Part shown: positions 3,735 through 56,816 of the stretch, in pieces
Layout of the letters: every line of letters begins with the position of its first letter
Position numbering within the stretch: the stretch's first letter is position 1
NCBI GenBank assembly: GCA_021734445.1
Contig: JAIPIY010000001.1
Location: 110,814-174,813 of the forward strand
Length of the DNA stretch: 64,000 nt
Direction of reading: 5' to 3'
DNA from: Minisyncoccota bacterium
GTDB taxonomy: Bacteria; Patescibacteriota; Minisyncoccia; Phycocordibacterales; UBA1006
Notes under the pieces: model-generated
The model's input: the letters and a program-made list of their open reading frames with translations, nothing else
The model's database searches: none
Told to the model about the DNA's origin: nothing
Translations under genes and position numbers: made by a program

Positions 3735-3764
3735 AATACATTAATTAAACCAATAAACCAGTAG

Positions 3765-3784
3765 TGGGTGACTATCGGGAATCG
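3765..3784. repeat. 20-nt direct copy of the tRNA-His 3' end (identical to 3960-3979), followed by GTCAC.
   Basis: Exact match tgggtgactatcgggaatcg at both positions. The copy begins at T-loop position C56 of the tRNA. Confidence 0.75.
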
Positions 3785-3833
3785 GTCACTCTTGTGGATT
3801 TTCTTTCAGAAAATCTCACGCCATTGACCTCCA
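3785..3833. repeat. Diverged copy of the conserved tRNA-downstream element (GTCAC ... GATTTTCTGAAAGAAAATC hairpin).
   Basis: Starts with gtcac and contains the AATTTTC/GAAAATT-type hairpin, as in the copies at 7309, 10093, 10355 and 15621. Confidence 0.45.
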
Positions 3834-3900
3834 CTCGCCCGCCAGGCTACGCCTGACTTTGTGCGGGCTCGGTTCGATTCCCTCTCGAAAACTTTGTTTT
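3826..3900 (+). other. Degenerate tRNA-like fragment (T-arm consensus GGTTCGATTCC, no complete cloverleaf).
   Basis: ctcggttcgattccctctcg resembles the tRNA-His T-arm, but I cannot build the stems. Confidence 0.25.
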
Positions 3901-3924
3901 CTCGTAGTCACTTTTAGACATAAC

Positions 3925-3952
3925 AAAAACGCAAGCAAAAGCCTGCGTTTTT
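3925..3952. terminator. Bidirectional hairpin terminator (AAAAACGCAAGC aaaa GCCTGCGTTTTT).
   Basis: 12-bp stem with one G.T mismatch and T-runs on both strands, immediately 3' of tRNA-His. Confidence 0.5.
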
Positions 3953-3961
3953 GTTATGCTG

Positions 3962-4034
3962 GGTGACTATCGGGAATCGAACCCGAATCAGAGGCTCCAC
4001 AAACCCCTGTGTTAACCGTTACACCATAGTCACC
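3962..4034 (-). tRNA. tRNA-His (anticodon GTG) with an encoded G-1.
   Basis: Cloverleaf built by hand: acceptor GTGACTA/TAGTCAC with an extra 5' G pairing discriminator C73, anticodon loop TTGTGGA, T-loop TTCGATT. Confidence 0.85.
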
Positions 4035-4105
4035 AATATAAAACACAAGAAAATATCTCTCCTGTGTTGCTTTGTTATACCAAAAAAATCAAATAAAAGC
4101 CAGCC

Positions 4106-5113
4106 CTAGAAAGAAATCTTTTTTCTAGCAATCAGATTTTCCAAATACAACCCTGCGATAGAAGCCAAAATAACAATAGCTAAATACACCAAAAACAATC
4201 CCCAGTATGACCAATTTGATTCTCCTATTTTTACCAAAACAAACATAACATACCATGACACCACTGAAACACTACCAAAAATAAAAACTATCTTTCGCAT
4301 CATTTCAAATGCATGTTTTTCGCCTGTGATATGTGGCTGATCAAAAGGAATTTCCGATAACTGATGACCCACCAATAGATTTACCATGACGCTATTCATA
4401 ATCAACACCAATGTAATAGTCATCACCATTAACATACTACTGGATTCCAATATTGCAGGACCAAATGATGCGTAATATCCGATTCCTACCAAGACAAACA
4501 ATCCCAGGATAAACCACAACAACTGATAGAAAAATCCAATAGTTCCTGCTTCACCTTTTGAAACATGATGATCATGCAATGAACGAAAGAAATACAAATC
4601 TGTCAGGGTCGCAATACCCACACCCAAAGCCAACGCCAACGAATATCCCACAAATAAGATATGTTGATAGGTTGCCAAAATTTCAACCAAACTAAATGGA
4701 AATGAGAACAACGAAATAACAAAAATAAATAATGAAATAGTTGCCGACCCCAAACACCATGAACACCATTCACGCAAAGCAAAAGCCTGGATAGCAACCA
4801 AATACACTGAAAACAACATTGCTAATGTTGTAATGACAATAAATACAAACATCACGCCTGGTGTACCCAAACTAGGCATAATCATGATAGTCGCATATGC
4901 CAAAGCAATCAGAGAATAATAGAAAATTCCCATCCATTCTACTGGTATACCCAAGAAATTTGAAAACCGGCTGTAAATTACCGTATCGCAATTTGCATCC
5001 AAAGGACAAATCATCTTTTCATGTTTTGCTTTTTTGTGTCGAATAAAACTGGCTAAAAAGAATCCTGCAAACGCAAGAAAAACAAGAACAATTTTTGCAA
5101 CTAATGGTGACAT
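4106..5113 (-). CDS. VKOR (vitamin K epoxide reductase) family membrane protein with an extra C-terminal multi-TM domain.
   Basis: Cys pair in the loop (CPLDANCD) and an in-membrane CSWC CxxC motif; many TM segments. Confidence 0.55.
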   Translation of the reverse strand: MSPLVAKIVLVFLAFAGFFLASFIRHKKAKHEKMICPLDANCDTVIYSRFSNFLGIPVEWMGIFYYSLIALAYATIMIMPSLGTPGVMFVFIVITTLAMLFSVYLVAIQAFALREWCSWCLGSATISLFIFVISLFSFPFSLVEILATYQHILFVGYSLALALGVGIATLTDLYFFRSLHDHHVSKGEAGTIGFFYQLLWFILGLFVLVGIGYYASFGPAILESSSMLMVMTITLVLIMNSVMVNLLVGHQLSEIPFDQPHITGEKHAFEMMRKIVFIFGSVSVVSWYVMFVLVKIGESNWSYWGLFLVYLAIVILASIAGLYLENLIARKKISF

Positions 5114-5147
5114 ATGATGAGATTATATACTAAAAACACCTTCAAAG

Positions 5148-7235
5148 CTAGAATTCCGTTACCGGCAAAGGTTCCGTTTCAGTTTCTGTTTCTGTTGGCA
5201 CATTTTCATCATTGCTAACAGATTGTTTTAATTCTGGAAATAAAATTTGAACATCTTCTGGAATAACTGAGACAATTTGATTATTAGCCAACGATGTTAA
5301 TTGCAAAGTATGCTGTACAGACATGGTATCAAAATTACTGGATCCTGAAAAACCATATGGGATAAATGTATTCTCTCGTAGAGATACCAGCCCGGTAAGA
5401 TTTTTTACGGTACGCATAAAATCAGTTTCTAATATTGTTACCATTTCACCAAAAGATTGTATCCTCATAGGATATTGATACATGGGAAGATTCATAACTG
5501 AATGTGACACACCAGGATTTTCTAATACGATAGATTGCAACCCATCTGAAACAGTGTTCACAACACCAGCTATTATTTGAACACTGTCTGGTAATGGTGT
5601 TTCTTCAGGTATGGTATGTATTACCGGTAATCGATACCAAATATCTTTTTGTATATTCAAGTGAGTAAGAATTTCTAGTGATGCTTCTCCGAAAGATACA
5701 TAAGTAAATTCTTGATCAAGTATAAATTTCATACGAACACGCTCCATACCTGATTCACGCGGTATCTCCAACGTAATATTTCCTTCTGATTGTATTCCTG
5801 TATCCCCATTACGTAACCACCCATCCACAGATAACAATGATTCTACAGGTTGTATTACAGGAATTTCTGCGTTCAAATCTTCGGTCACTATTTCTTCTCC
5901 TGCTACTTGCCCTGTTGTAACATCTGAAGATTCTGTTATTTCAACCTCTCCTTGTTCATCATTCATAGGAAAAAACAATGACTGAAATATATCTTTTTCT
6001 GATGTAATACTACCCACATAAGAAAACTGCATTCCTGAATTTGCGGGTAGAATATTTTTCAACGAAGCAAAAGCTTGTTCCGCCAAAGGAACTTCAATCA
6101 CAGTAGTTTCTTCAACAGGCGTTTCTTGATTCAAAAAACCAGAAAACAGCCCCTGTGTATATCCATACAATCCAAAACCAAATATTGCCAACACTAATAA
6201 AATAATAACCGTGATACCTATAATTTTTTGTACAGGATTATGTTTTTTGATAATTACACCATCATCATGTATTTCAGTATCAGGCGTAATTGCCATACCT
6301 CCAAAAGCTGGTGAAGCCTGGGGTGGATTAAAGGATGCCCCTGGATTAACCACAGGAGAAACTGGTTCTGATTTTGTATACCATTCTTGTGCAAAATTTT
6401 GTGCTGGTTTAGGTGCTATCACAGGATCTATAGACTTTGGTGCAATGTTTGATTCAGATGTTTTCATTACCGGTACTGATTCTTTTTCTTGAACCATACC
6501 CACAGGAACGATGGTTGGTTCTGGAATATAAGCCGATGATTGCATTGTATTTTGCATAACCGGCTGCTGTGCCAGTGTTTCTTTTACTGCAATAGATGCG
6601 GGTTGTATACGTGGATCAAAAGAATCAACTGGCTGTACAGGAGGCATCACAACAGGAGTTTTTTCTTCAACAACTGATTGCAAAGGTTCTTCTGCTGGCA
6701 TTTCTTTTACTGGATTTTCAAATGAAATACCTGCAATTTCTTCAGTAGGAGAAGACAAAGAAACATCATTCATTTGTTTTTCATTTAAACTATCAGGAGT
6801 ATTTTGTGTAACAGATTCAATCCCCGCTTGTTCCAAAGAATCATTATCCAAATCTAATACAGTAGACATTTCTTCTTGGGTTTCTGGAATATCTTTCTGT
6901 ACCAATGGAGAATGATCTTTTTCAGAAGAAACAGAAACATCTCCACCTAAATCAACATTTACAACGGGTGCTTGTTCAACCTCTTTGGATTCATACGATG
7001 GTTTTTGTGATGAAATAACTTCATCTTTGTTTTCACCTGTTTTTATTACAGATGATTCCATGGACGCCATAGGGACATCTTGTTCTGAAACACCTACTGA
7101 TTTGAATACTTCATCAACATCATCATGTGTCCATCCACCATATGCGAATAAATCTTTACGAATAATATCAAGGTGATGACCTTTTGCGATACGTAATTGA
7201 ATATAATTTACAAGTTCTGGTGTAATCATACACAC
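5148..7235 (-). CDS. Hypothetical single-TM protein with a long low-complexity (E/P/S/V/Q-rich) linker and a C-terminal extracytoplasmic domain.
   Basis: 695-aa ORF with a central hydrophobic segment IIGITVIILLVLAIFGFGLYGY. Confidence 0.45.
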   Translation of the reverse strand: MCMITPELVNYIQLRIAKGHHLDIIRKDLFAYGGWTHDDVDEVFKSVGVSEQDVPMASMESSVIKTGENKDEVISSQKPSYESKEVEQAPVVNVDLGGDVSVSSEKDHSPLVQKDIPETQEEMSTVLDLDNDSLEQAGIESVTQNTPDSLNEKQMNDVSLSSPTEEIAGISFENPVKEMPAEEPLQSVVEEKTPVVMPPVQPVDSFDPRIQPASIAVKETLAQQPVMQNTMQSSAYIPEPTIVPVGMVQEKESVPVMKTSESNIAPKSIDPVIAPKPAQNFAQEWYTKSEPVSPVVNPGASFNPPQASPAFGGMAITPDTEIHDDGVIIKKHNPVQKIIGITVIILLVLAIFGFGLYGYTQGLFSGFLNQETPVEETTVIEVPLAEQAFASLKNILPANSGMQFSYVGSITSEKDIFQSLFFPMNDEQGEVEITESSDVTTGQVAGEEIVTEDLNAEIPVIQPVESLLSVDGWLRNGDTGIQSEGNITLEIPRESGMERVRMKFILDQEFTYVSFGEASLEILTHLNIQKDIWYRLPVIHTIPEETPLPDSVQIIAGVVNTVSDGLQSIVLENPGVSHSVMNLPMYQYPMRIQSFGEMVTILETDFMRTVKNLTGLVSLRENTFIPYGFSGSSNFDTMSVQHTLQLTSLANNQIVSVIPEDVQILFPELKQSVSNDENVPTETETETEPLPVTEF

Positions 7236-7308
7236 AGTGTACCATATTTATTTTTTATTTTTTACAAAAGGTGTGTAAAAGATTTAAAACAACAAAGGAG
7301 AAGGCTTG

Positions 7309-7358
7309 GTCACAAATAATTTTCCTACAGAAAATTTTCGCGACCCCGCCTCGTCTGC
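7309..7358. repeat. Conserved tRNA-downstream element copy (3' of tRNA-Leu), preceded by a degenerate copy of the tRNA-Leu 3' end (about 7291-7308).
   Basis: gtcacaaataattttcctacagaaaattttcgcgaccccgcctcg, near-identical to the copy at 10355. Anchored to ORF 7306. Confidence 0.6.
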
Positions 7359-7391
7359 CTTGGGCATAACTCCGACCTTCAAGATCCTCAC

Positions 7392-7413
7392 GCGAGCAAA
7401 GCAGTTTGCTCGC
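7392..7413. terminator. Hairpin (GCGAGCAAA gcag TTTGCTCGC) 3' of tRNA-Leu.
   Basis: 9-bp perfect stem. Confidence 0.4.
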
Positions 7414-7438
7414 TTCCTGCGCACAGATGTTCACATTG

Positions 7439-7522
7439 TGCGCAGGAGAGGACTTGAACCTCCACGCCCTTGCGGGCACATCCACCTCAAGGATGCTTGT
7501 CTACCAGTTTCAACACCTGCGC
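7439..7522 (-). tRNA. tRNA-Leu (anticodon GAG), long variable arm.
   Basis: Acceptor GCGCAGG/CCTGCGC, anticodon stem CATCC/GGATG, loop TTGAGGT, variable arm TGCCCGCAAGGGCG, T-loop TTCAAGT. Coordinates anchored via ORF 7306. Confidence 0.85.
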
Positions 7523-7596
7523 AATGTTTTGATTATACATTTTTCGATGATTTTTACAATTTAAAAACCCTGACCATTTCGGGTAGGGTTTTTAAA

Positions 7597-8109
7597 TTAT
7601 TCAGAATCTTTTTGTGTATCTTCTGTTGTTACTACTGGTTCTGATTCTACTGTTGATTCTTCTGGAGCTTCATCAGTTGGTTCATCTTCCGGAAGGATGG
7701 TTGTCAAAAATGGAATAAGATTTCGCATTTTTCGTTTAATATCACGGGCAACCTTGGTTCGAACGTAATATAGTTTAGATCGTCTTACTTTTGATCGACG
7801 TACTACTTCTATTTTTTCAATAGATGGTGAATATAATGGGAAGATACGTTCTACACCTACACCACTGGCTACCTTGCGAACAGTAAAAGTTGCACCAGGT
7901 TCTGTTCCATGTTTTCGCGCGATTAAAAGACCTTCAAAAAGCTGAATACGGGTTTTTCCTTTTTCTTCAATTTTTACATGCACACGAACAGTATCCCCTG
8001 CACGCAGGTCAATATTTTTTCGTTCATGTATTGATACGGGCGTAAAAGCCACAGTTGTACTTGCTGTCATAACGTGAGAAACTATAACATATCCAATTTT
8101 GTTTTGCAA
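7597..8109 (-). CDS. rplS: 50S ribosomal protein L19 with an N-terminal and an acidic C-terminal extension.
   Basis: [31 protein letters not shown]...[21 protein letters not shown] is typical L19. Confidence 0.8.
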
Positions 8110-8822
8110 TAGACCAAAGCATCTTCAAAATCTTTTGGAAAAGGAGCTTCAAAATGGACCCTTTCTCCTGATAAGGTAATAAAATCTATTGCACGCGCAT
8201 GCAATGCCTGACGTTTAAAACCTAACAGATTTGGTCGGTTTGGTGCATATAATGTATCCGCTAACATAGGATGTTGTAGATATTGCATATGCACGCGCAG
8301 TTGGTGGGTTCTTCCTGTTTCTGGCAATAAAACAATATAAGAAACCAAATCATCCTGTAATCGATATTTTGTTCGATAATGAGTTACCGCCTGACGCTCT
8401 TGTCCACGTTTTCCCCTGCCGGCACTATAACGACGAAAATCACGCGGGCTACGCGCAATAGGTGCATCAACGGTCCCTGCATCTTTTTTTACTATACCGT
8501 GCACAAATGCATGATATTCTTTGGTGATCGTATGATTTTGGAATTGTTCTTTGAGATGGAGAAACATTTCAGGAGTTCGTGCAACAATCAAAATTCCCGA
8601 AGTATCTTTATCCAAACGATGCACAATACCAGGACGATCGATAACCGTTCCGTCTTTTAATCTCATGGGTTCTCCTACACCAACAATGTCAGGAAATTGT
8701 TCCACCAAAAAATCCACCAATGTTTTTTCATCGGTGTGTCCATCCGCGTGCACCAACAAACCAGCGGGTTTATTGATGATGAGGAAATGTGGGTCGGTGT
8801 GAAGAATATTTAGATATTTCAT
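8082..8822 (-). CDS. RluA-family pseudouridine synthase.
   Basis: [15 protein letters not shown] catalytic motif. Start moved to the internal ATG MKYLNIL (8822); the ORF-track start at 8984 would overlap the divergent gene. Confidence 0.75.
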
Positions 8823-8844
8823 ATAATATGTTATAGTATACAAT

Positions 8845-9549
8845 ATGAATATAAATTTTGATATAGAAAAATCCCCTATTAAAAAGGAGACTATCAGAAA
8901 ACCTTGGTCTGATGAAAATATTGGGTTTCTCTTAGGAAACATGCACATATTAAAAAACAAAGAGAAAGCGCTCAATGATCCCAATAATTACAGAGAAAAA
9001 AGCATCGAAACATTTAACGAGCTTGATACTTTCCTTAGAGACAATGGGGGCACTCATTATGAAAATATTAATGATTTATATAATCAATATAACAGTACAA
9101 CAAAACCGCTTATTGTAAGAAGAGAAGATCCGATACGTATTGTTAACCTCATAAAAGGTGATTCTATTAAAATGGAATTTGATCCAGAAGTTGTTGGTGA
9201 TAGAGGGGATAAATATGCTAATTCTGCATTATGGCCATATGGACCTATTAATAAAACAAGTGGAATTGCAAATGCATTTCTTGAAGGTCGAGGTGCCGCT
9301 GGACCAATAGTGATCGTTGCTGGATACACACACAACCAAGATCATATGACAATTGAAGACCCTCATGAGCACATGGCAGAAGTTGGGACAATTCAAAGAC
9401 ATGCAATAAAAATCCTTTCAGGAGAAATAGAGACCAAAGATCTAGAATTTCTTATAGTCAGGGCACCAAAAAAGTTTTTTGATCCAACAAAACTAAAACC
9501 AGAAGAACAACATTCAGAGCAAATTTTTAGAGGGTATAAATTTAAATAA
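8845..9549 (+). CDS. Hypothetical protein.
   Basis: 234-aa ORF with no motif I recognise. Confidence 0.4.
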   Translation: MNINFDIEKSPIKKETIRKPWSDENIGFLLGNMHILKNKEKALNDPNNYREKSIETFNELDTFLRDNGGTHYENINDLYNQYNSTTKPLIVRREDPIRIVNLIKGDSIKMEFDPEVVGDRGDKYANSALWPYGPINKTSGIANAFLEGRGAAGPIVIVAGYTHNQDHMTIEDPHEHMAEVGTIQRHAIKILSGEIETKDLEFLIVRAPKKFFDPTKLKPEEQHSEQIFRGYKFK

Positions 9550-9578
9550 AAAAATAGGCTGAAATGATGTAAATCACC

Positions 9579-9923
9579 TCAGCCTTGTTTGTTTTTTGTC
9601 ACTAATACATCAACACAAGAAACGCACGTAAGTGCACCGGGTACCAATCTTAACCTGGCGACCGGTATATCCTGAGAGCATTTTTTACAAATACCATATT
9701 TCCCATCTTTTATAGCATTCAATGCTTCGATGAGAAATGGGGTAACTACCTGTGTTTTTCTTTGTTGATATGGAGTCAAATCTCCTAAAGTAAGAATCTG
9801 CTCTGCAATAAGATCTTTATCATTATAACGATCAATACGAGCTTGAATAATTTCTTTTTGAATTTTTACAAAAGAAGTCCAACCGGGACCATTTCTCACA
9901 AGAATTTCTTCTTTTTCCTCCAT
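9579..9923 (-). CDS. DksA/TraR-family C4 zinc-finger protein.
   Basis: C-terminal CKKCSQDIPVARLRLVPGALTCVSC four-Cys finger; ~114 aa. Confidence 0.6.
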   Translation of the reverse strand: MEEKEEILVRNGPGWTSFVKIQKEIIQARIDRYNDKDLIAEQILTLGDLTPYQQRKTQVVTPFLIEALNAIKDGKYGICKKCSQDIPVARLRLVPGALTCVSCVDVLVTKNKQG

Positions 9924-10039
9924 GGGTGTACAGTTTTTATTCTTTGATATTATACTTTAAAATAATAATAAAGTCAATACCATGCATATTATCTTATTTA
10001 AAACTTATATTTAGAGAAAAACATCATCATGGCAAAAAA

Positions 10040-10059
10040 GCGACCACCTTCGTGGCCGC
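10040..10059. terminator. Hairpin GCGACCAC cttc GTGGCCGC followed by a T-run.
   Basis: 8-bp stem with one mismatch, between the DksA-like gene and the tRNA cluster. Confidence 0.35.
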
Positions 10060-10067
10060 CTTCTTTG

Positions 10068-10092
10068 TTTTATGTGCGCGATGAGGGACTTG
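10068..10092. repeat. 25-nt direct copy of the tRNA-Val 3' end plus 4 trailer nt (identical to 10238-10262), followed by GTCAC.
   Basis: Exact identity confirmed through two overlapping ORF-track frames (10072 and 10215). The copy starts at T-loop C56. Confidence 0.85.
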
Positions 10093-10140
10093 GTCACGAA
10101 TATTTTGCTTTACAAAATTTCTCGACCCCGACTCGGCGAC
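10093..10140. repeat. Conserved tRNA-downstream element copy (3' of tRNA-Val).
   Basis: gtcacgaatattttgctttacaaaatttctcgaccccgactcggcgac. Confidence 0.6.
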
Positions 10141-10244
10141 AATTTTGTAAGACAAAATCGTAAACCGCCTCCGTCTTTCAAGTCCCAATCTCTTGGTAAA
10201 ATACAAAAGCCCGAATGCTTTGCATCCGGACCTTGTATTTTATG

Positions 10245-10317
10245 TGCGCGATGAGGGACTTGAACCCCCGACCTTCTCGGTGTAAACGAGCTGCTCTACC
10301 AACTGAGCTAATCGCGC
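10245..10317 (-). tRNA. tRNA-Val (anticodon TAC).
   Basis: Acceptor GCGCGAT/ATCGCGC, D-arm GCTC AGTTGGTA GAGC, anticodon loop TTTACAC, T-loop TTCAAGT. Confidence 0.85.
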
Positions 10318-10354
10318 TATGTTTTTATTATAAAGAAAAATCTTTACTCCGTGT

Positions 10355-10399
10355 GTCACAAATAATTTTCCTAGCGAAAATTTTCGCGACCCCGACTCG
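10355..10399. repeat. Conserved tRNA-downstream element copy (3' of tRNA-Arg-TCT; the flanking tRNA-end copy is eroded).
   Basis: gtcacaaataattttcctagcgaaaattttcgcgaccccgactcg. Confidence 0.6.
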
Positions 10400-10447
10400 C
10401 CTGTGTTCCAAGTATTCACACTACGGCTCCGTCCGCACACTTCGCTC

Positions 10448-10469
10448 GAATGTAAAGAAATTTACATTC
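10448..10469. terminator. Hairpin GAATGTAAA gaaa TTTACATTC, 3' of tRNA-Arg.
   Basis: 9-bp perfect stem. Confidence 0.4.
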
Positions 10470-10481
10470 TTTACGCTCGTG

Positions 10482-10553
10482 TGCCCCCGCTAGGAATCGA
10501 ACCTAGATTAACGGCTTAGAAGTCCGCAGTTCTATCCATTGAACTACAGGGGC
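10482..10553 (-). tRNA. tRNA-Arg (anticodon TCT).
   Basis: Acceptor GCCCCTG/CGGGGGC, D-arm GTTC AATGGATA GAAC, anticodon loop CTTCTAA (one A.G mismatch at the stem base), T-loop TTCGATT. Confidence 0.7.
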
Positions 10554-10621
10554 ATCTTACCCTATCAGACCGTATACACGGTACCTAAAACGAAGGACCA
10601 ACAAAGTATAGCATATTTCGT

Positions 10622-10933
10622 TTATTGGTCAATATATTCGTTTGCCACCGGACGCATATCATTACGCTCTTCGAGAATTTCCAAAACTTTGTCCAAATTA
10701 TCTTGATGCAACACAGGAACGATCTGATCTGAAATAATTTCTTCTTCTACATGGATACGATCAGATACCACATAATAACGATATACAATTGCTGTAATCC
10801 CGAGGATTATAACGAAGCCAATAAAAAATCCTACTACAGACCATTGCCAAACAATAGTTGGTCGAAATCGTGAACGAATTTTTTTAATCGTTTCCTCAAG
10901 AGTGTTTATTGCTGTATCTGTTTTTATTATCAT
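10622..10933 (-). CDS. Small single-TM protein, first gene downstream of pilO (possible pilus assembly accessory).
   Basis: 103 aa with one TM (WSVVGFFIGFVIILGITAIVY). Confidence 0.4.
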   Translation of the reverse strand: MIIKTDTAINTLEETIKKIRSRFRPTIVWQWSVVGFFIGFVIILGITAIVYRYYVVSDRIHVEEEIISDQIVPVLHQDNLDKVLEILEERNDMRPVANEYIDQ

Positions 10934-10937
10934 ATTT

Positions 10938-11459
10938 TTATATCTGAGGAATAAAACTTGTCATACGACCAGTAATCACCAATCTCCACTGATCAATAAC
11001 TGGATCCTCCCCCTGAAACGGAGCAACAGAAACCTGATCAAGATCAATCACATAGGGTAATACTTCAAAGCGATGCAAGGCACGTGCGATGTTTTCAAAA
11101 TCCCCTCGAAAATCTACCCCCATCAATAAATGTGGTTCTTTTTCCTGTATGATATCCAACTGTGAAAGAGACAACACTACACCTTCTTCTGATGCCAGTG
11201 TTTCTAATTCTTTTATCAAATCAACGATATGCTGTTCTTCGATATGCATATTGTTTAATTGACTTTCAATAGAATCAATATCGCGTGTCATAATTCGTAA
11301 CGATTCAATTTGTTTTGTTTTTTGTTGCTCTTGTGCAAATTGTTTTTGAATTTCTTGGGTTTGTATTACAGTTTCTCGCACTTGTATCACCAAAAAAATA
11401 AACCCTGCAAGGATAAGAAGGCAAAAGATGCTACTGGTAATAAGGAGAGAATGTTTCAT
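10938..11459 (-). CDS. pilO: Type IV pilus assembly protein PilO-like.
   Basis: N-terminal TM plus coiled coil. Position after pilM/pilN. Confidence 0.5.
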   Translation of the reverse strand: MKHSLLITSSIFCLLILAGFIFLVIQVRETVIQTQEIQKQFAQEQQKTKQIESLRIMTRDIDSIESQLNNMHIEEQHIVDLIKELETLASEEGVVLSLSQLDIIQEKEPHLLMGVDFRGDFENIARALHRFEVLPYVIDLDQVSVAPFQGEDPVIDQWRLVITGRMTSFIPQI

Positions 11460-11460
11460 A

Positions 11461-12021
11461 TTATTGTGGTTCAGCTAATATTGCTGATAAAGAAAACGTC
11501 ACATCGTTTCCCGCTACAAAATGTGATACTGGAACAACAACATCAAGAAACGCGGGGTGATTTTTTATCGTTTGTATAAAAAATAATAAATCTTCTCGAG
11601 TCTGTGCAATACCACGCATAAACACAGTACCAGGGTTATCTTCTGTTGATTGAACAATACGTATTTCTTGTAATGCAATTCCTGCTGATGCTTTTTCACC
11701 CAGAACTATAACAATATCTGAAATGGTCGGCTGTTGAAAAGTAACCAAAGCTTTTTTTGTTTTTGTATTCACATCACGGATTCTTTTTACAATATCGCGA
11801 TATTCTTGATTTTCATCTTGATCCAATAACGTTTGCAAAGAAGCTTCTGCAATAGAGTAATTAACCCGTGCATACATATATAATCCCGAAAAAAGAATCC
11901 CCGCACACAACAACAGCGCCATACCCATATACAACACAATCATAACCGAACGTTTTTTCATTTCTCGATCGATTTGTTTTTTGTATTCTGTTGTTAAAAT
12001 ATTAATAGTCATATATTTCAC
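11461..12021 (-). CDS. pilN: Type IV pilus assembly protein PilN-like.
   Basis: Single TM after a short cytoplasmic N-terminus, then a periplasmic coiled coil. Overlaps the pilM stop. Confidence 0.5.
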   Translation of the reverse strand: MKYMTINILTTEYKKQIDREMKKRSVMIVLYMGMALLLCAGILFSGLYMYARVNYSIAEASLQTLLDQDENQEYRDIVKRIRDVNTKTKKALVTFQQPTISDIVIVLGEKASAGIALQEIRIVQSTEDNPGTVFMRGIAQTREDLLFFIQTIKNHPAFLDVVVPVSHFVAGNDVTFSLSAILAEPQ

Positions 12022-13102
12022 CTAATGCCAAACCCAAAGCAGTGGCATATGATAACGATTCTTCTTGGGATAATGCTGGAATATCTTCATCAAAAGACAA
12101 AATATTTTTCCATACCGAAGCTACCGTAACGGGCATATGCATCGTCGATGATAAATATTCTGCAAATCCAGGTAATAACGATCCTCCTCCCACCAAATAC
12201 ATTCCATCAATAGTTCCAGAAACTCCTGGTAATTTACCATGGGCGGTATGCCAATATAGGTAGTGTTTATTTATTTCATCACGCAATGCACTAATATTAT
12301 TAATCACGGTAAAGAAATAATCTTGGTCATCCGTATTGTGTAATAATCCTCGTGATTGTTTTATGGTTTCTGCTTCTTCTTTTGAAATCTGAAAATATTT
12401 TGCGATGGCTTCGGTTAATGAATCAGATCCAATATCCAATGTCGATGTAAACACCGTAGCGCCAGAAACGATAATAGAAAAACCTGATCGATTCTTTCCA
12501 TAGTCAACCAAAATATACGTTCCTGCATCATGTCGAGGAACTGTAACCCGTGATAATGCATGCACCTCTAATTCCCCCACTAATGGACGCAATCCAGCTG
12601 ATAGAAAAGCACGCGTATAGGTTTCAATAATTTCTCGTGGAAATGCAGTAACGCTGATTAATAACGAATCCTCGTGTTCACGAAAAATTTCATATCCAAA
12701 AGAAATATCGGATTCTGGCAAAGGAACATGTTCTTCTATCTGCAAACGAATAGCTTCTTCTAAATGAGGTAAAGCTTTTTTAGGTAACATAATCGAAAAA
12801 ACATACGCATGTTCTTCAGGTAAAGAAAACCGAACCCAACTGGCTTTTGTTTTTTGTTGAATAGAACGCAATGCCGAAGTAAAAGCAGGAATATCATGAA
12901 CAACACCTGAAACAACAATATCTTTTTGGAGAGCATGTTCTCCATATTCTCCTAATTTCAGAGATGTATTTTTTCTTTTCAGGGTAGCAAAACGTAATGT
13001 GTCATCAGAAATATCAATAGACAATGCAGGCATACGTGCAAACGCAGGTGCAGGGAAAAGTTTTTGAATCACGTGAGAAAACTTCATAGATATAGTATAC
13101 AC
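12002..13102 (-). CDS. pilM: Type IV pilus assembly ATPase-fold protein PilM.
   Basis: 366 aa with an actin-like fold signature (LSIDISDDTLRFATLK ... MYLVGGGSLLPGFAEYL). Confidence 0.65.
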   Translation of the reverse strand: MYTISMKFSHVIQKLFPAPAFARMPALSIDISDDTLRFATLKRKNTSLKLGEYGEHALQKDIVVSGVVHDIPAFTSALRSIQQKTKASWVRFSLPEEHAYVFSIMLPKKALPHLEEAIRLQIEEHVPLPESDISFGYEIFREHEDSLLISVTAFPREIIETYTRAFLSAGLRPLVGELEVHALSRVTVPRHDAGTYILVDYGKNRSGFSIIVSGATVFTSTLDIGSDSLTEAIAKYFQISKEEAETIKQSRGLLHNTDDQDYFFTVINNISALRDEINKHYLYWHTAHGKLPGVSGTIDGMYLVGGGSLLPGFAEYLSSTMHMPVTVASVWKNILSFDEDIPALSQEESLSYATALGLALGEIYDY

Positions 13103-13120
13103 GAAATATCTCTCTTGGGT

Positions 13121-13699
13121 CTAGTTTTTTAAAACAAAATAAAGAATTACCATACACACAAATAATATAGTTATCATGCGCAGATGTTTTACATAATGCG
13201 ACAATACGATTCGCGCTCGATCTCCAAATAAAAATACAATATACGCTTCGATATAAAAACGTAATCCACGACCCAACACTGAACCCAAAATAAACGGTAT
13301 CAAAGGGACCTGAAAAAATCCGCCTAAAATGGTAAATAATTTAAACGGAATAGGGGTAAACGCTGTGATAAACATGGTGACAAAAGTAGCTGATGCAAAC
13401 AAATGTGCAATCGTTGTGATATAATTTTTTGTATCATAAAACTGCACCAATGATTCAGCAAAACCTTCAAAAAGAAAAAAACCCAACGCATAACCAGCCA
13501 GCCCGCCCAAGATAGAAGCAACAGTGGTAATACCTGCATATCGCCACCATGCGTGTTTATTAGCAAAAACCATAGGTATCAGTAATATATCAGCTGGAAT
13601 CGGGAAAAAGGAACTTTCTATAAAAGATACAATCGCCAAAACCCATACCGAAGTACGTGATACAAGCCAATTTTGTACTATATGCAACCACCGATTCAT
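13121..13699 (-). CDS. DedA/VTT-domain family membrane protein.
   Basis: FIESSFFPIPADILLIPM ... GRGLRFYIEAYIVFLFGDR are typical DedA motifs. Confidence 0.65.
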   Translation of the reverse strand: MNRWLHIVQNWLVSRTSVWVLAIVSFIESSFFPIPADILLIPMVFANKHAWWRYAGITTVASILGGLAGYALGFFLFEGFAESLVQFYDTKNYITTIAHLFASATFVTMFITAFTPIPFKLFTILGGFFQVPLIPFILGSVLGRGLRFYIEAYIVFLFGDRARIVLSHYVKHLRMITILFVCMVILYFVLKN

Positions 13700-13703
13700 A
13701 TAA

Positions 13704-14051
13704 TTATCGAACCACGGTACCGGGTGCCACAGATGTTTCTGGAACTAAAAATACTGGTTTTCCATCGATACCATCCACCGCCATCAACATACCATTACTG
13801 GTCACACCGCGAATATCACGTGGTTCCAGATTAGTTACATACAATAATTGTTTCCCAACCAATAGTTCATATTCGGGATAATATTCTCGAATTCCAGATA
13901 CAATCTGTCGCAAGACTGAATTCCCTTCGTCATCTTTTTCTCCAAAATCAATCTCACAACGCAATAACTTATCAGACCCCTCGACCGGTTCAACTAATTT
14001 CACAGTACCAATTTGCATGGTTAATTTTTTAAAATCATCGTAGGTAATCAT
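13704..14051 (-). CDS. tRNA-binding domain protein (CsaA/Trbp111/EMAP-like OB fold).
   Basis: LLVGKQLLYVTNLEPRDIRGVTSNGMLMAVDG. Confidence 0.6.
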   Translation of the reverse strand: MITYDDFKKLTMQIGTVKLVEPVEGSDKLLRCEIDFGEKDDEGNSVLRQIVSGIREYYPEYELLVGKQLLYVTNLEPRDIRGVTSNGMLMAVDGIDGKPVFLVPETSVAPGTVVR

Positions 14052-14076
14052 AGGGTTTATAGTAAAGGTTAATCTA

Positions 14077-14493
14077 TTATTTTTGTTTGTCTAAATATCT
14101 TTGTAACATAATCGCAGCTGCTAATGCATCGTCTTCGCCAGTTGGCTTTTTTGCACGACTACGTGACACATTTTTTTCTGGAACCAAAGACTGCAAAGCT
14201 GATCTGGTAGTAAAATCTTCACGTTGAGTATCAATAGGAATCTGCACCAAAAATGACATTTGCCCTATGAAATCTCGCACGTCATCCATAATCGCATTAT
14301 CGTTTCCTTTTGCATCTTTTGATTCTCCTATAATGATTTTTTCTACTCGTTCATCTGATACAATTTTTGCAATCACATGATGAATATCTGCTGTTGTTGG
14401 AATCACTTTGTAAGCAAAAGCCATAGAACCATCATCGTCTGACAATGCTAATCCTATTTTCTTTTTTCCATAATCAATTCCCAAATACCGCAT
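14077..14493 (-). CDS. ruvX: Holliday junction resolvase-like YqgF/RuvX.
   Basis: MRYLGIDYGKKKIGLALSDDDGSMAFAYKVI; 138 aa. Confidence 0.75.
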   Translation of the reverse strand: MRYLGIDYGKKKIGLALSDDDGSMAFAYKVIPTTADIHHVIAKIVSDERVEKIIIGESKDAKGNDNAIMDDVRDFIGQMSFLVQIPIDTQREDFTTRSALQSLVPEKNVSRSRAKKPTGEDDALAAAIMLQRYLDKQK

Positions 14494-14494
14494 A

Positions 14495-15262
14495 TTATTC
14501 AGAAGCTACCGTAATAGGTAACATACATTCATGAGATTGCCCTTCGTCTGGACCAGCAGGATTATTATCAGTAAAAATTAACTGTGCGTTCATATCTGCT
14601 GGAATAGATGATAATGCAGGCACAACCAAAGAGAATGGTTTTGGATTTCCATTCATCCAATCAACAGACAGACTCATCAAAACAGGTCCAGCCAATACGG
14701 TACCCTGCATATCTTTGATCACTACATGACCTGCTTCCCCTTCGAATACAGTCCAATCCTGAGGGTTTGATGTAGGATGAATAAATCCTGAAACTTCTAA
14801 CGGAAAAGAAAGATTTTCTAATGTTGTTGGTTGTGCAATAGCCAACCCTAAACAAGCTTGTGCTTCGTTTTCATTTTCAAATGTGTATTCTGTTTCTTGA
14901 ATTTTCGCATGTAATGCCTGTCTGGTCAGTAGATCCACAATACCAGTTTGTGGTACACCTGCATCCAACTGAAATGCCAACACTGCATCTTCGGTATACG
15001 AATAATAATGCCCGTTTGGTTCCCCATTCAGATATCCATGATCGATAAGAAATTCTTGTAATTTTCGAATCTCTTCGTTGTTCTCCATTCCGTACTGTAA
15101 ATTTTGTGTAAACACAGGAACAAAAGATTCGTCCAATTCTTCGAAATCAACTTCGGAAATAACTTGAACCGGTTCGTCTTTTGATTTTGTATATACTGCG
15201 ATACCAATACCCACGAGAACGATTATAAACAAGCTAAAGAAAAATTTAAATGGTGTTGTCAT
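14495..15262 (-). CDS. Secreted protein with a peptidoglycan-binding (PG_binding_1-like) domain.
   Basis: N-terminal TM/signal; motif YSYTEDAVLAFQLDAGVPQTGIVDLLTRQAL. Confidence 0.5.
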   Translation of the reverse strand: MTTPFKFFFSLFIIVLVGIGIAVYTKSKDEPVQVISEVDFEELDESFVPVFTQNLQYGMENNEEIRKLQEFLIDHGYLNGEPNGHYYSYTEDAVLAFQLDAGVPQTGIVDLLTRQALHAKIQETEYTFENENEAQACLGLAIAQPTTLENLSFPLEVSGFIHPTSNPQDWTVFEGEAGHVVIKDMQGTVLAGPVLMSLSVDWMNGNPKPFSLVVPALSSIPADMNAQLIFTDNNPAGPDEGQSHECMLPITVASE

Positions 15263-15430
15263 ATAAAAAAATAAGTGATAAAAACGGGATTAACCTTGAA
15301 TATAGTATAGCATATATACACTCACCTGAAAAAATTGCAGACTTTTGCTGTATATGATAGGATGCTTTTGTATACATATGTTATACAAAGACCTATCTTA
15401 TAAAGGCAATAATGCTTTTAAAAAGATATT

Positions 15431-15517
15431 GGAGGAGTGGCAGAGAGGTCGATTGCACTTGTCTTGAAAACAAGAGTCTGGGGAACCGGACCGTGAGTTC
15501 GAATCTCACCTCCTCCG
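15431..15517 (+). tRNA. tRNA-Ser (anticodon TGA), type II.
   Basis: Acceptor GGAGGAG/CTCCTCC+G, anticodon stem CTTGT/ACAAG, loop CTTGAAA, long variable arm, T-loop TTCGAAT. Anchored via ORF 15412. Confidence 0.85.
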
Positions 15518-15620
15518 CAACGACCCGAAAGGGTGATGTCTATTACCCGATTGGGTTGTCGGCGCGTGAGAATGTGAGATTCGAAAGACGGAGGCGCGAA
15601 GCCGATTCGCAGAATCGTTG

Positions 15621-15664
15621 CCGAGTCAGGGTCGTGAAATTTTGCGTAGCAAAATATTCCTGAC
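15621..15664. repeat. Conserved tRNA-downstream element copy (3' of tRNA-Ser), ending in CTGAC.
   Basis: ccgagtcagggtcgtgaaattttgcgtagcaaaatattcctgac. Confidence 0.6.
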
Positions 15665-15685
15665 CGAATCTCACCTCCTCCGCAA
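15665..15685. repeat. 21-nt direct copy of the tRNA-Ser 3' end (identical to 15500-15520), beginning at T-loop C56.
   Basis: Exact identity verified through the ORF 15412 frame. Confidence 0.85.
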
Positions 15686-15731
15686 TTAGTATTTAGTATC
15701 GGAGTGACCCAAGAGCTTATAATCAATAAAC

Positions 15732-16148
15732 ATGGCTGAAGACTTTTCTAAAAATTTGGTCAAAGAATACTCGCATTGGAGTATCTATGTGCATGACAAT
15801 CAAGGGTATCTCGGACGATGTGTTATTTGGTGCAAAAGAGAAGATGCTCTCGACATGGTGGATGCAACTGAGGATGAGCAGAGAGAACTCTTTCTAGTAT
15901 TGAGAGATCTCCAAAAAGCTTCCAAAGATTGCTTTAATCCCGACTGGTTCAACTATGCCTTTTTGGGAAACGAAACTCGCCACCTACATGGCCACTTTAT
16001 TCCTCGGTACAAAGAGCCGAAGACTTTTATGGATACTACTTTTGAAGATAAATTATGGGGTCATAACTATAAAACCGACCACTCTTTCATTATTTCAGAC
16101 GAGCTATTGCAAGCGGTTAGAAATAAACTCAAAGCTTCTCTTGGATAG
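15732..16148 (+). CDS. HIT-family (histidine triad) hydrolase-like protein.
   Basis: HLHGHFIPR triad motif; 138 aa. Confidence 0.55.
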   Translation: MAEDFSKNLVKEYSHWSIYVHDNQGYLGRCVIWCKREDALDMVDATEDEQRELFLVLRDLQKASKDCFNPDWFNYAFLGNETRHLHGHFIPRYKEPKTFMDTTFEDKLWGHNYKTDHSFIISDELLQAVRNKLKASLG

Positions 16149-16290
16149 AAATATCTCAACTGACCCGAGTACCTCAAACAAGTCCTCAGAATTACTCTGA
16201 AATACCCTTATGGTGTCTCACCGCTCTGGTACTGAACCCAAGTGGTCCACTATTAACAGATAGCACGACATACCATATGTTAAAGCAAAC

Positions 16291-16316
16291 AAAAAGCACA
16301 AAATTCTGTGCTTTTT
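16291..16316. terminator. Bidirectional hairpin AAAAAGCACA aaattc TGTGCTTTTT between convergent genes.
   Basis: 10-bp stem flanked by A and T runs. Confidence 0.5.
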
Positions 16317-16327
16317 GTTTTACCTAA

Positions 16328-16885: not shown

Positions 16886-16887
16886 AA

Positions 16888-33259: not shown

Positions 33260-33266
33260 CATAATA

Positions 33267-46741: not shown

Positions 46742-46767
46742 ATGGTTGTAGTATAGCATGTTACTAT

Positions 46768-46801: not shown

Positions 46802-46805
46802 ATAT

Positions 46806-56787: not shown

Positions 56788-56816
56788 ATGAGAATAGTAT
56801 AGCATGATATCCAAAT

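Follow-up and report, generated by a model that had tools for sequence, protein, structure and literature searches.

Tyrosine-integrase elements, and the integrase-less CIMEs mobilised in trans, leave direct repeats of a gene's 3′ part whose starting point is the T-loop or the extreme 3′ end, supply a 3′ end that keeps the target functional, use tmRNA as a target too and form arrays by repeated integration. Williams is said to have catalogued, in 2002, the T-loop and the extreme 3′ end among the integration sublocations of tRNA and tmRNA genes. Phage 21 and e14 at icd carry a replacement 3′ end with synonymous differences. The modules described here share all of these features but measure 130-200 nt rather than kilobases, and carry neither integrase gene nor cargo. 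A single core family is found at nearly all tRNA identities, the site is apparently set by pairing to an internal segment, and the conserved part is a covarying single-strand fold. The PATEs of the IS200/IS605 family and REPINs are likewise small, protein-less and hairpin-rich, have one active strand, recognise their site through an internal guide adjoining a hairpin and lack a short target-site duplication of fixed length; the geometry that strand exchange at the three-way junction of the modules would have resembles IS200/IS605 guide-to-cleavage-site pairing. Unlike these elements, the modules have a variable, target-derived left arm and a three-way-junction core instead of two similar end hairpins; they carry a new 3′ end for the target, which is not a constant tetra- or pentanucleotide.

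Two further systems offer partial parallels. Group I introns occur in tRNA genes of the same phylum, Patescibacteria (PMC13011429). As in their P1/P10 pairing, the module guide spans the left junction, pairing with the bases on either side of it, or else pairs with the bases immediately 3′ of the right junction; the two junctions come together at the core. In contrast, the module core has about 90 nt rather than at least 200 and matches no Rfam intron; the left junction lacks a U.G pair, a terminal G is missing, the module stands after a complete tRNA rather than inside it, the tRNA functions without module excision, and split tRNAs were not found. IS110/IS1111 bridge (seek) RNAs are also structured non-coding RNAs inside a mobile element that specify the target by reprogrammable base pairing. 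The modules differ in having no DEDD recombinase ORF in or near them, a single contiguous guide of 8-20 nt instead of split guides in two internal loops, and a long target duplication instead of a 2-nt core.

In the window, the whole 64-kb stretch of DNA analysed, ARAGORN and Rfam identify six tRNA genes, and five of them have a module behind them:

3961-4033, minus strand: tRNA-His, module present
7438-7522, minus strand: tRNA-Leu-GAG, module present
10244-10317, minus strand: tRNA-Val-TAC, module present
10481-10553, minus strand: tRNA-Arg-TCT, module present
15431-15518, plus strand: tRNA-Ser-TGA, module present
33188-33260, plus strand: tRNA-Arg-GCG, without module

Exact direct repeats of at least 20 nt within 400 nt occur in the entire window only as the His (20 nt, 3765-3784 = 3960-3979), Val (25 nt, 10068-10092 = 10238-10262) and Ser (21 nt, 15665-15685 = 15500-15520) pairs. 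The first base of each downstream copy is T-loop C56, directly 3′ of ...(G/C)TGAC. A module comprises a conserved fold of ~90-110 nt and a variable 5′ arm, 130-200 nt in all; those behind the window's five tRNA genes measure roughly 100-190 nt. The window holds two core types, A (Leu, Arg, Val and Ser) and B (His). Directly 5′ of the core lies a segment, DR′, that is complementary to the tRNA across the junction, and junctions fall into two classes, U55|C56 and G71|C72. DR′ had gone unmentioned in an earlier sequence-only reading of this DNA. The His and Leu modules are laid out as follows:

3960-3979, minus strand: His upstream copy, the 3′ part of the functional tRNA-His
3919-3958, minus strand: His SL0, terminator-like hairpin between tRNA and guide
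3873-3911, minus strand: His guide (DR′), in two parts, read from the sequence
3905-3911, minus strand: His guide part GTGACTA, complement of the acceptor 3′ strand
3883-3904, minus strand: small hairpin between both His guide parts
3873-3882, minus strand: His guide part GGGAATCGAA, complement of U54-C63
3785-3872, minus strand: His module, type B core; CGAG...CGAG helix with P2 hairpin, then P3
P3 of the His module, minus strand: long hairpin GGTCAATGG..TGAGAT..ATCCACAAGAGTGAC; the module terminates in GAC at 3785
3765-3784, minus strand: His downstream copy, tRNA nt 56-76, 20 nt exact
7378-7425, minus strand: Leu guide region, two complementary stretches around a hairpin
7415-7425, minus strand: Leu guide part TGTGCGCAGGA, complement of the acceptor 3′ strand
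7392-7413, minus strand: Leu conserved hairpin GCGAGCAAACTGCTTTGCTCGC between the guide parts
7378-7389, minus strand: Leu guide part GAGGATCTTGAA, complementary to T-loop and T-stem 3′ strand but for one extra base
7309-7377, minus strand: Leu module, type A core; covariance-model match 7297-7389, E 1.5e-15
7293-7308, minus strand: Leu downstream copy, degenerate, CAAGCCTTCTCCTTTG vs tRNA CAAGTCCTCTCCTGCG

Each His guide part is able to pair with the upstream as well as the downstream tRNA 3′ end, and we read the downstream copy as the displaced original 3′ end. The empty orthologous His site of L121 lacks an SL0-type hairpin. Type B cores, in His a predicted three-way junction (fold z -3.7), also occur at L121-Val, L121-Leu, L123-His and L124-His, with a further ~24 metagenome copies 3′ of tRNAs. 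The remaining modules are of type A:

10435-10440, minus strand: Arg guide GTGTGC, complements GCACAC (tRNA nt 71-74 and 2 trailer nt)
10355-10434, minus strand: Arg-TCT module, type A core; covariance-model match 10343-10446, E 1.2e-12
10318-10354, minus strand: Arg downstream copy, degenerate ACAC with trailer and hairpin, by comparison with the empty site in L123
10195-10237, minus strand: Val SL0, terminator-like hairpin with TAAAA/TTTTA arms at its flanks
10177-10186, minus strand: Val guide GGGACTTGAA, complement of U54-C63
10093-10176, minus strand: Val module, type A core; covariance-model match 10081-10188, E 9e-16
10068-10092, minus strand: Val downstream copy, 25 nt exact, nt 56-76 and TAAAA
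15574-15585, plus strand: Ser guide GTGAGATTCGAA, complement of U54-C65
15586-15664, plus strand: Ser module, type A core; covariance-model match 15574-15676, E 5e-16
15665-15685, plus strand: Ser downstream copy, 21 nt exact

The Val core is a predicted three-way junction (fold z -4.7), and the Ser core has a fold z of -3.4; the Ser guide continues in degenerate form further upstream, over the acceptor strand. The Val orthologue in L123 has the guide GGGGCTTG paired with an altered downstream copy, CAAGCCCC. The sequence-only reading had given the same repeat lengths and the start at position 56, had rightly called the Leu copy degenerate, and had placed a conserved element where the covariance model now matches in Ser, Val, Leu and Arg and where His carries the diverged type B. 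Its description of the Arg copy as eroded does not hold: the guide GTGTGC defines the second junction class, G71|C72, the copy begins at C72-A73-C74, and ~38 nt of trailer and hairpin are duplicated in degenerate form, as far as tRNA-Val. The ~45-nt element that it described is indeed conserved, but makes up no more than the 3′ half of a three-helix fold of ~90-110 nt.

The guide and the junction keep a fixed register. The left edge of the copy is always C56 or C72, and its right edge varies: the duplicated piece can extend over trailer and terminator, as in the exact 65-nt repeat of L123, or take in ~30 codons of a protein gene. Pairing of DR′ with the upstream tRNA begins at U54 or N70, with a mean contiguous length of 9.0 bp and 10.4 bp, respectively, and is longer than pairing with the downstream copy in 69 of 71 modules. 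The insertion point is 2 nt from the 3′ end of the internal complementary segment, and in tmRNA as in tRNA it falls at U55|C56 or G71|C72. Where G71|C72 modules have a 2-nt spacer, it is the exact complement of tRNA nt 70-71 in 21 of 21 cases, with five different dinucleotides; the near-identical modules L030 (Lys) and L056 (Arg) have CG and CT. At L001, L026 and L057, DR′ is a perfect complement of 15-18 nt of trailer particular to the locus. A pre-existing guide is insufficient there; either a palindrome was extended on a template, or the element brought the trailer and tandem remnants are present. Long palindromes that take in the tRNA end but have no core, which count against guide-directed insertion as well, are seen in the first unit of L068 and at the empty Val site of L124. 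In L007, L049 and L089 the upstream tRNA carries C55 through gene conversion between the two copies, which makes it harder to tell which of them is the original.

A covariance model built from relatives has Ser, Val, Leu and Arg as its only matches in the window, with E values of 1e-12 to 1e-16. When 45 copies are folded together with RNAalifold, the result is a three-way junction that shows strong covariation (18 of 31 pairs compensated). In 132 model matches, aligned by fitting to the covariance model itself, 96.3% of cells are paired versus 73.8% when shuffled, and 29 of 31 pairs show both-sided changes. The covariation score is 0.474 against 0.142 for shuffled alignments, a value reached by 0 of 500 shuffles, and slid controls score 0.05-0.08. 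Because the core has an invariant G.U pair and a GC/GU pair, the fold belongs to the tRNA-sense strand. Rfam contains no family matching the core and our literature search found no description of these modules, which the sequence-only reading had not recognised as a described element either; they look like an undescribed kind of miniature mobile element across Patescibacteria.

We call the modules mobile on comparative evidence. Empty orthologous sites stand against filled ones for Arg (L123), Val (L124) and His (L121), the Val tRNAs of the window and of L121 carry different core types, and syntenic relatives have independent insertions of different variants at one tRNA. The window's Val site holds nested remains of an earlier module, tandem arrays occur, and older truncated ends lie downstream of newer copies. 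The empty sites have a single tRNA and so contradict the idea of ancestral full tandem tRNA genes, of which the copies would be remnants with coincidental junctions. An old event, a pseudo-tRNA-Ser upstream of an intact tRNA-Ser (L023, L097 and L101), has that appearance; whatever the tRNA identity, however, the same conserved core adjoins the copy, the junction is 55|56 or 71|72 without exception, and no 5′ tRNA parts lie beside the copies. This reading is already contradicted, and we give it almost no credence.

The modules could instead serve the host as tRNA 3′-trailer RNA, co-transcribed with the tRNA as a cis processing, stability or termination element or as a tRNA-like decoy or spare part, and spread by duplication and recombination since it benefits the cell. 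They share the orientation of the tRNA and have no promoter of their own, their fold is RNA-like, five of the window's six tRNAs and most orthologous tRNAs of relatives carry one, P1 and the downstream copy together can resemble an acceptor/T minihelix (His, L029), and orthologous Val modules show one compensated change in P1. We nonetheless find this account unlikely: in close relatives the same tRNA stands without a module and with nothing visible in its place, different core types occupy one tRNA, downstream copies are often degenerate, cores decay (L124-Arg at 27.8 bits and 33% GC; L121-Arg with P3 lost), and tandem, nested and ectopic copies occur. A processing or termination role, which the sequence-only reading had offered, could be a side effect; it leaves polymorphism, arrays, decay and ectopic sites unexplained.

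Ectopic copies are rare. Guide-matching examples lie at a topA site, CACAAAAAC, used by two different module variants (L004 and L104), at the rplL end (L037), at GCG|CAC inside the pseudo-tRNA-Ser and antisense to 5S rRNA. At the 3′ ends of topA and rplL the gene has a replacement tail, intact upstream of the module, and the displaced tail downstream differs mainly synonymously. No locus was found whose tRNA becomes intact only upon module removal, and hence there is no sign of fresh heterologous insertion or of a need for splicing.

We hold with modest confidence, from comparison of the sequences, that these are miniature, non-coding, guide-directed mobile modules specific to Patescibacteria, target-restoring and either non-autonomous or possibly self-acting. 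In tRNA sense each consists of an upstream 3′ part, read as a replacement, DR′, a three-way-junction core ending in GAC and a downstream 3′ part, read as the displaced original. The replacement, which probably comes with the element, runs from C56 or C72 to the end of the gene or transcript, often with a hairpin, and DR′ complements the target's 3′ part and 2 nt left of the junction. Pairing of DR′ with either copy places the left (NN|C...) and right (GAC|C...) junctions at the three-way junction, a geometry that would fit strand exchange there. Given this geometry and the match of site to guide, the guide probably directs insertion to where it pairs, and the gene hit stays intact; the module later decays or is pushed downstream by newer insertions. 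The reaction probably acts on single-stranded sense-strand nucleic acid, with RNA or single-stranded DNA as candidate intermediates and, as candidate catalysts, the RNA itself or an enzyme that acts in trans from a gene elsewhere in the genome. A terminator-like hairpin often stands before the module, which makes its transcription uncertain.

The type A motif occurs at no fewer than 119 genome loci; all named ones are from Patescibacteria except one labelled Bdellovibrionales, and viral contigs gave 0 matches. At about three-quarters of the loci with enough upstream sequence, a same-strand tRNA of one of at least 16 isotypes ends 63-190 nt upstream of the core; four loci lie behind tmRNA. No ORF recurs around the 119 loci, no mobility-related Pfam family was found among the window's ORFs, no module copy is split by an ORF, and neither the window nor the surroundings of the 119 loci hold an associated recombinase, transposase or reverse transcriptase gene. 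The sequence-only reading had already noted that the window lacks a recombinase gene, and its suggestion of miniature or decayed elements inserting at a T-loop position survives in large part: presence and absence, variants, arrays and the many loci support a miniature family. A small, non-coding module with a conserved covarying fold is not a decayed large island, and the insertion point, at ectopic sites too, follows the complementary segment rather than the T-loop as such. That the repeats are tyrosine-integrase scars, attL/attR of deleted islands or CIMEs, we regard as distinctly improbable. Repeat starts, tmRNA targets and replacement 3′ ends agree with it; the short cargo-less segment, the absence of an integrase gene and one core at so many tRNA identities, even within a single genome, do not. 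Base-pair covariation on one strand is not expected of a double-stranded protein-binding site, and with identity starting at C56, 2 of 7 T-loop positions differ between sites.

The guide-directed reading has a more specific version that names catalyst and intermediate: a non-autonomous single-stranded-DNA transposon in the manner of PATEs or REPINs, with a transposase, of Y1/HUH type or another, that would cut and join the sense strand and have a single gene elsewhere in the genome. Small protein-less elements that fold on one strand only and tolerate G.T, a long imperfect hairpin at the right end, a nearby base, R, that co-varies with a mismatch in the base of this hairpin, and an internal guide that, as in IS608, reaches across the left junction to pair outside the element would suit it. 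So would the terminal loops, which are GNA triloops, GCGAAGC mini-hairpins and GACG/AGCA loops, with one GNRA and no UNCG RNA tetraloop among ~200. We think this version doubtful, since the left-end hairpin varies with the target and does not resemble the right-end one, no fixed 4-5-nt target motif exists, no Y1 transposase lies in the window or near any locus, and one guide subclass has tandem G.A pairs (..GGAUGAGAA against CGAGUCC), typical of RNA motifs. At L121-Val, a different module has as its SL0 the terminator GGCGGCCACGAAGGTGGTCGC that follows the window's Val downstream copy, and the Leu hairpin sequence recurs at many unrelated loci.

Five of the six tRNA genes in the window (His, Leu-GAG, Arg-TCT, Val-TAC and Ser-TGA) are followed in tRNA sense by the same arrangement, a non-coding insertion of about 130-200 nt that we call the module; the sixth, tRNA-Arg-GCG (33188-33260), is without one. 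A sequence-only reading had described exact repeats of the tRNA 3′ end at three of these genes, all running from T-loop position C56 after ...TGAC, and a repeat scan of the 64-kb window confirmed the observation. The His, Val and Ser repeats are the sole exact direct repeats of at least 20 nt within 400 nt in the whole window, and each of the three copies starts at C56, immediately 3′ of ...TGAC.

Exact direct repeats of tRNA 3′ ends in the window
3765-3784 = 3960-3979, tRNA-His, starting at T-loop C56
10068-10092 = 10238-10262, tRNA-Val, starting at T-loop C56
15665-15685 = 15500-15520, tRNA-Ser, starting at T-loop C56

Remnants of tandem tRNA pseudogenes were rejected as a candidate: no second tRNA and no 5′ part stands beside the 3′ fragment, and shared foreign sequence is present.

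In tRNA sense, each locus runs from the tRNA through SL0 (a hairpin), DR′ (a guide-like segment complementary to the 3′ part of the tRNA), (A)AG-N-CGGAG, P2 (a variable hairpin), CGAG-N′-C-R-GG and P3 to the copy of the tRNA 3′ part. SL0 is a true terminator at some loci and the conserved sequence GCGAGCAAACTGCTTTGCTCGC at others; P3 is a long imperfect hairpin, GUCGNGAAAWUUU...AAAWUAUUYNUGAC. The conserved element of about 45 nt recognized earlier is present as described but forms only part of this anatomy, which also includes SL0, DR′, P2 and P3, and the reading of it as a miniature element was largely right, if incomplete. Two junction classes exist: the terminal GAC is followed either by tRNA sequence from C56 or by C72-A73-C74 plus a few trailer bases. 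The Arg-TCT copy, previously taken to be eroded, is instead a member of the second class. Copies have a constant left edge and a right edge that ranges from the tRNA end to far past it. The window tRNA genes (for example, 3960-3961, 7437-7438 and 10243-10244) and most fetched loci have no encoded CCA; very often C-A comes right after the discriminator (...A-CA), and with this C-A the short copy of the G71|C72 class also begins.

Analysis with RNAalifold of 45 copies, aligned with MAFFT, a check of the kind that the sequence-only reading had proposed for element plus copy, yielded a three-way junction closed by DR′:copy pairing with compensatory changes in 18 of 31 pairs. A covariance model from this alignment found 132 copies in 98 sources. 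In the 132-copy alignment, paired cells reach 96.3% (73.8% in shuffles), two-sided changes occur in 29 of 31 pairs and the covariation score is 0.474 (0.142 shuffled; reached by 0 of 500 shuffles), pair counts that are somewhat inflated by fitting to the model and with which the MAFFT-based 45-copy result agrees. Control structures slid by 1-3 columns scored 0.05-0.08. Within the fold, one contiguous guide forms the helix P1, N and N′ co-vary, tandem G.A pairs adjoin the N/N′ pair, and GGUC, at the foot of P3, pairs through its first G with the opening nucleotide of the copy. P3, which forms the right hairpin, is conserved; the left hairpin is target sequence that differs at every tRNA. One pair is invariantly G.U, a second alternates between G-C and G.U, and A.C combinations are rare, which places the fold on the tRNA-sense strand. 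The window copies, each folded as a single sequence, give the same junction (z = -4.7 for Val, -3.7 for His, -3.4 for Ser, -2.95 for Leu and -1.6 for Arg).

DR′ adjoins the core, the three-helix fold of about 90-110 nt, and its complementarity to the tRNA begins 2 nt left of the junction, at U54 or N70. It pairs contiguously with the upstream tRNA over 9.0 bp on average in the T-loop class and over 10.4 bp in the 3′-end class, and in 69 of 71 modules this pairing is longer than that with the downstream copy; these lengths somewhat favour the upstream partner because more start positions were tried for it, yet the start positions are nearly constant. In the 3′-end class, the 2-nt spacer between GTG and the core is the exact complement of tRNA nucleotides 70-71 in 21 of 21 modules that have such a spacer, and these together use five different dinucleotides. 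Two near-identical modules, at a tRNA-Lys (L030) and a tRNA-Arg (L056), carry the spacers CG and CT, respectively, each as its own tRNA requires. Whichever copy DR′ pairs with, the NN|C and GAC|C junctions both lie at the three-way junction.

Such a guide could have arisen by templated fold-back, and DR′ of locus L001 fits this origin. One DR′ subclass, however, has UGAG instead of the Watson-Crick complement of the T loop, which against CGAG gives U.G plus tandem G.A pairs, so that DR′ is not simply a copied strand; this subclass and modules at ectopic sites contradict a fold-back origin. In L001, L026 and L057, 15-18 nt of locus-specific trailer have a perfect complement in DR′, and long palindromes including the tRNA end occur without a core. 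For both, template switching that extended a palindrome is one possible source and truncated tandem copies are another.

A few modules lie away from tRNA ends, at topA, rplL, a pseudo-tRNA-Ser and antisense to 5S. Two different module variants (L004 and L104) sit at the 3′ end of topA, encoding topoisomerase I, where the site CACAAAAAC matches their DR′ (..GTTTTTGTG); the same DR′ is found at tRNAs with a trailer beginning CACAAAAAC. Upstream of the module topA has its complete tail, stop codon and terminator, and a second tail follows downstream, which in L104 is still open over 30 codons and differs from the upstream tail mostly at synonymous positions. At rplL (L037) the last five codons and the stop are duplicated with three synonymous differences. 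Three loci (L023, L097 and L101) share an old insertion at GCG|CAC inside a pseudo-tRNA-Ser, beside an intact copy, and the L038 module is antisense to a 5S rRNA gene. These ectopic cases indicate that the guide sets where a module lands and that a working replacement of the interrupted gene end arrives with it. The synonymous divergence indicates that the two tails evolved separately as coding sequence, and they would fit an incoming, element-borne tail and a displaced native one.

Three syntenic relatives of the window (L121, L123 and L124) were fetched through homologues of a neighbouring 695-aa protein (64-68% amino-acid identity). Empty orthologous tRNA sites, which the sequence-only reading had singled out as informative, were found among them for Arg, Val and His.

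Occupancy of orthologous tRNA sites
Arg-TCT site: filled in the window, L121 and L124; empty in L123 (51-nt gap to tRNA-Val)
Val site: filled in the window and L123 (same module) and in L121 (type B module); empty in L124
His site: filled in the window, L123 and L124; empty in L121

The sequence 3′ of the window Val copy is the SL0 terminator of an L121-type module, and this apparent remnant indicates successive insertions at one Val site. Tandem units occur in L064, L068 and L070, with assembly gaps inside the arrays; truncated older module ends lie 3′ of newer modules in L025, L030, L043 and L053, and the Arg cores of L124 and L121 are visibly decaying. We found no tRNA that is intact only after removal of its module. 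We consider it likely that the modules are mobile insertion modules.

U55, as pseudouridine 55, is nearly universal in tRNA. The upstream tRNAs of L007, L049 and L089 (Ile, Asp and His) have C55 instead, matching the terminal C of the module, which points to gene conversion between the two copies as their probable origin. The tRNA-Met of L008 has G55, and its module ends in GAT. At the ‘empty’ Val site of L124, CACA of the tRNA and a matching TGTG fall within the arms of a long palindrome (1287-1340), which may represent either the state before insertion or a solo remnant. A 23S_rRNA_IVP family gene lies between RuvX and a tRNA_bind gene in L121 (1344-1709), and the window and L123 lack it there.

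The window His copy represents a second core type, B, also found at Val and Leu in L121 and at His in L123 and L124. Of about 24 type B copies in metagenomes, all those with upstream sequence at hand sit 3′ of a tRNA, and nearly all then carry the sequence of their own tRNA from C56 onward. The type A core motif, the type of the other window modules, occurs in at least 119 stretches of a species-level genome collection. Where a locus extends far enough upstream, a tRNA on the same strand ends 63-190 nt ahead of the motif in around three-quarters of cases; these tRNAs represent at least 16 isotypes, and four further copies follow tmRNA genes. Among the matches listed, named records are all Patescibacteria except one labelled Bdellovibrionales, with unclassified bins also present; their taxa are Nomura-, Moranii-, Taylor-, Adler-, Kaiser-, Yonath- and Niyogibacteria, Paceibacterota, Saccharibacteria and Minisyncoccia. 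The exception, L092 (CAZBFG010000031.1, ‘uncultured Bdellovibrionales’), has a typical module behind tRNA-Leu and is probably a mis-binned or mislabelled Patescibacteria contig. A viral contig collection gave no match to the core motif.

The modules do not travel with a recognizable gene. Clustering of ORFs of at least 90 aa across 119 loci recovered only housekeeping families near modules, with no recurrent ORF and no autonomous version, and no ORF divides the core halves of any copy examined. Promoter-like sites were located 5′ of the tRNAs and none inside modules. Neither the 64-kb window nor the 8-20-kb loci encode a Y1/HUH transposase, and Pfam assigned no recombinase, transposase or reverse transcriptase family to the window ORFs. 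The earlier statement that the window lacks a recombinase holds for Pfam families; five ORFs have no family, and the window therefore cannot be called entirely free of unknown enzymes.

Window ORFs without a Pfam family at E ≤ 0.001
944-2257 (-), 437 aa
2844-3734 (-), 296 aa
8845-9549 (+), 234 aa
28953-32387 (-), 1144 aa
51115-51786 (-), 223 aa

Elsewhere in the window, 62623-63507 (-) encodes a 294-aa metallo-beta-lactamase-fold protein of about the size of RNase Z. Two further ORFs, 42773-46879 (-, 1368 aa) and 54370-56871 (-, 833 aa), each have a Peptidase_S74 ‘chaperone of endosialidase’ domain, typical of phage tail fibres or spikes, and are located among ribosomal protein and EF-Tu/EF-G genes.

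Compared with known systems, the module shares with tRNA-targeting integrative elements the restoration of the target and, with tyrosine-integrase elements and CIMEs, flanking direct repeats of the tRNA 3′ part from the T loop or 3′ end. Unlike these, it has no integrase, and no related full-length element with the same att flank was seen in the window ORFs, the 119 loci or the viral contigs; att sites are double-stranded and protein-binding, whereas the covariation of the module is strand-specific. Like IS200/IS605 ends, it has an internal guide reading bases outside the element. PATEs and REPINs of that family, however, have similar subterminal hairpins at both ends, in contrast to a conserved P3 and a target-derived left hairpin, and IS200/IS605 targets are a constant 4-5 nt, whereas the module has no constant motif but complementarity of the 2 nt left of the junction in 21 of 21 cases. 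IS110/IS1111 bridge or seek RNAs carry split guides in two internal loops; the module has one contiguous guide, no such loops and no DEDD recombinase ORF beside it.

Use of one internal guide for both junctions recalls P1/P10 of group I introns, a resemblance only: the core of about 90 nt has no match to the catalytic P3-P9 (Rfam, E ≤ 1, 3000-17000), and where group I introns have U.G at the 5′ splice site and a terminal G, U55 here pairs with A and the end is GAC. Compared with class C group II introns, which target terminators, the module is too small, without an Rfam match or domains I-VI, and its AG-N-C position varies and co-varies, unlike the domain V catalytic triad. An Rfam 15 search gave no match to hammerhead, twister, twister-sister, hatchet, pistol, HDV-like or hairpin ribozymes, and by eye the junction strands differ from those of hammerhead and other small ribozyme cores. 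Rfam at E ≤ 1 over 3000-17000 returned no family matching the module, and at gathering thresholds 18 loci matched tRNA, tmRNA and rRNA only. Other candidates were also rejected: a TnpB/Cas12k-type guide RNA (copy as guide, GGTT as PAM), because the copy has an internal complement as its pairing partner and no effector gene is present; TnpB/Cas12-type RNAs including type V-K tRNA-homing crRNAs, which have a free 16-20-nt 3′ guide, as the G71|C72 copy is only 3-7 nt; and retron msr-msd, primer-binding site and T-box, with no reverse transcriptase gene, CCA complement or T-box motifs. Because it fails at least one defining test of each compared system and matches no Rfam ribozyme or intron, we rate the module as outside known kinds, unless a known transposase family acts on it in trans. 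A full-text literature search found the element undescribed in the papers retrieved; the nearest work reports that Patescibacteria tRNAs have group I introns at position 35/36 and that group II introns are absent from Patescibacteria (PMC13011429).

We lean slightly towards a guide-directed, target-restoring account in which base pairing of DR′ would target a miniature mobile module, the module would carry a replacement of the 3′ part of its target, and the original 3′ copy would be displaced downstream. The strand-specific fold and the meeting of both junctions at the three-way junction favour a single-stranded, sense-strand intermediate. A DNA strand would suit the terminal loops (GACG, AGCA/AGUA, GNA triloops and GCGAAGC mini-hairpins), among about 200 of which there are one GNRA tetraloop and no UNCG, and the one copy antisense to 5S rRNA; tandem G.A motifs, the orientation of the module in the direction of transcription and an exact repeat of 65 nt in L123 (12218 and 12424) that ends 7 nt past an intrinsic terminator stem argue for RNA. 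The GCGAAGC heptamer forms an unusually stable DNA mini-hairpin; it and its relatives GCGNAGC are frequent at P2/P3 tips (for example, window 15596-15602, L121, L123, L029 and L116). The right edge of the copy would fit the 3′ end of a terminated transcript at L123-His, L030 and L104 (the latter two judged by eye), and truncated tandem copies explain it equally. We regard as improbable that the core is a minimal, protein-independent catalytic RNA, a ‘mini-intron’ of about 100 nt that would align both junctions at the three-way junction through DR′ and could excise itself from, or enter, the 3′ parts of tRNA and other transcripts, with cDNA or recombination fixing new genomic copies; it would then constitute a new ribozyme class, self-mobile and programmable in its target.

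If the guide-directed account is true, Patescibacteria, whose genomes are among the smallest in bacteria, contain a very abundant, previously undescribed type of mobile element without a gene of its own, which has a conserved fold of about 100 nt, in which a guide sets the landing place by base pairing and a replacement gene end lets even essential single-copy tRNA genes survive insertion. It would enlarge the small set of insertion systems guided by nucleic acid (group II introns, IS200/IS605, IS110 bridge RNAs and CRISPR-associated transposons), and a new trans-acting enzyme or a new ribozyme would have to exist. The small size of guide plus core makes the unit interesting as a tool for programmable insertion.

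In practice, modules break assemblies at tRNA loci, and the tRNA fragments confuse annotation. N runs separate the tandem units in L064 and L070, and L120, the only other contig with the window's 103-aa protein, has the same sequence as the window and breaks off shortly past the Arg module, inside tRNA-Val.
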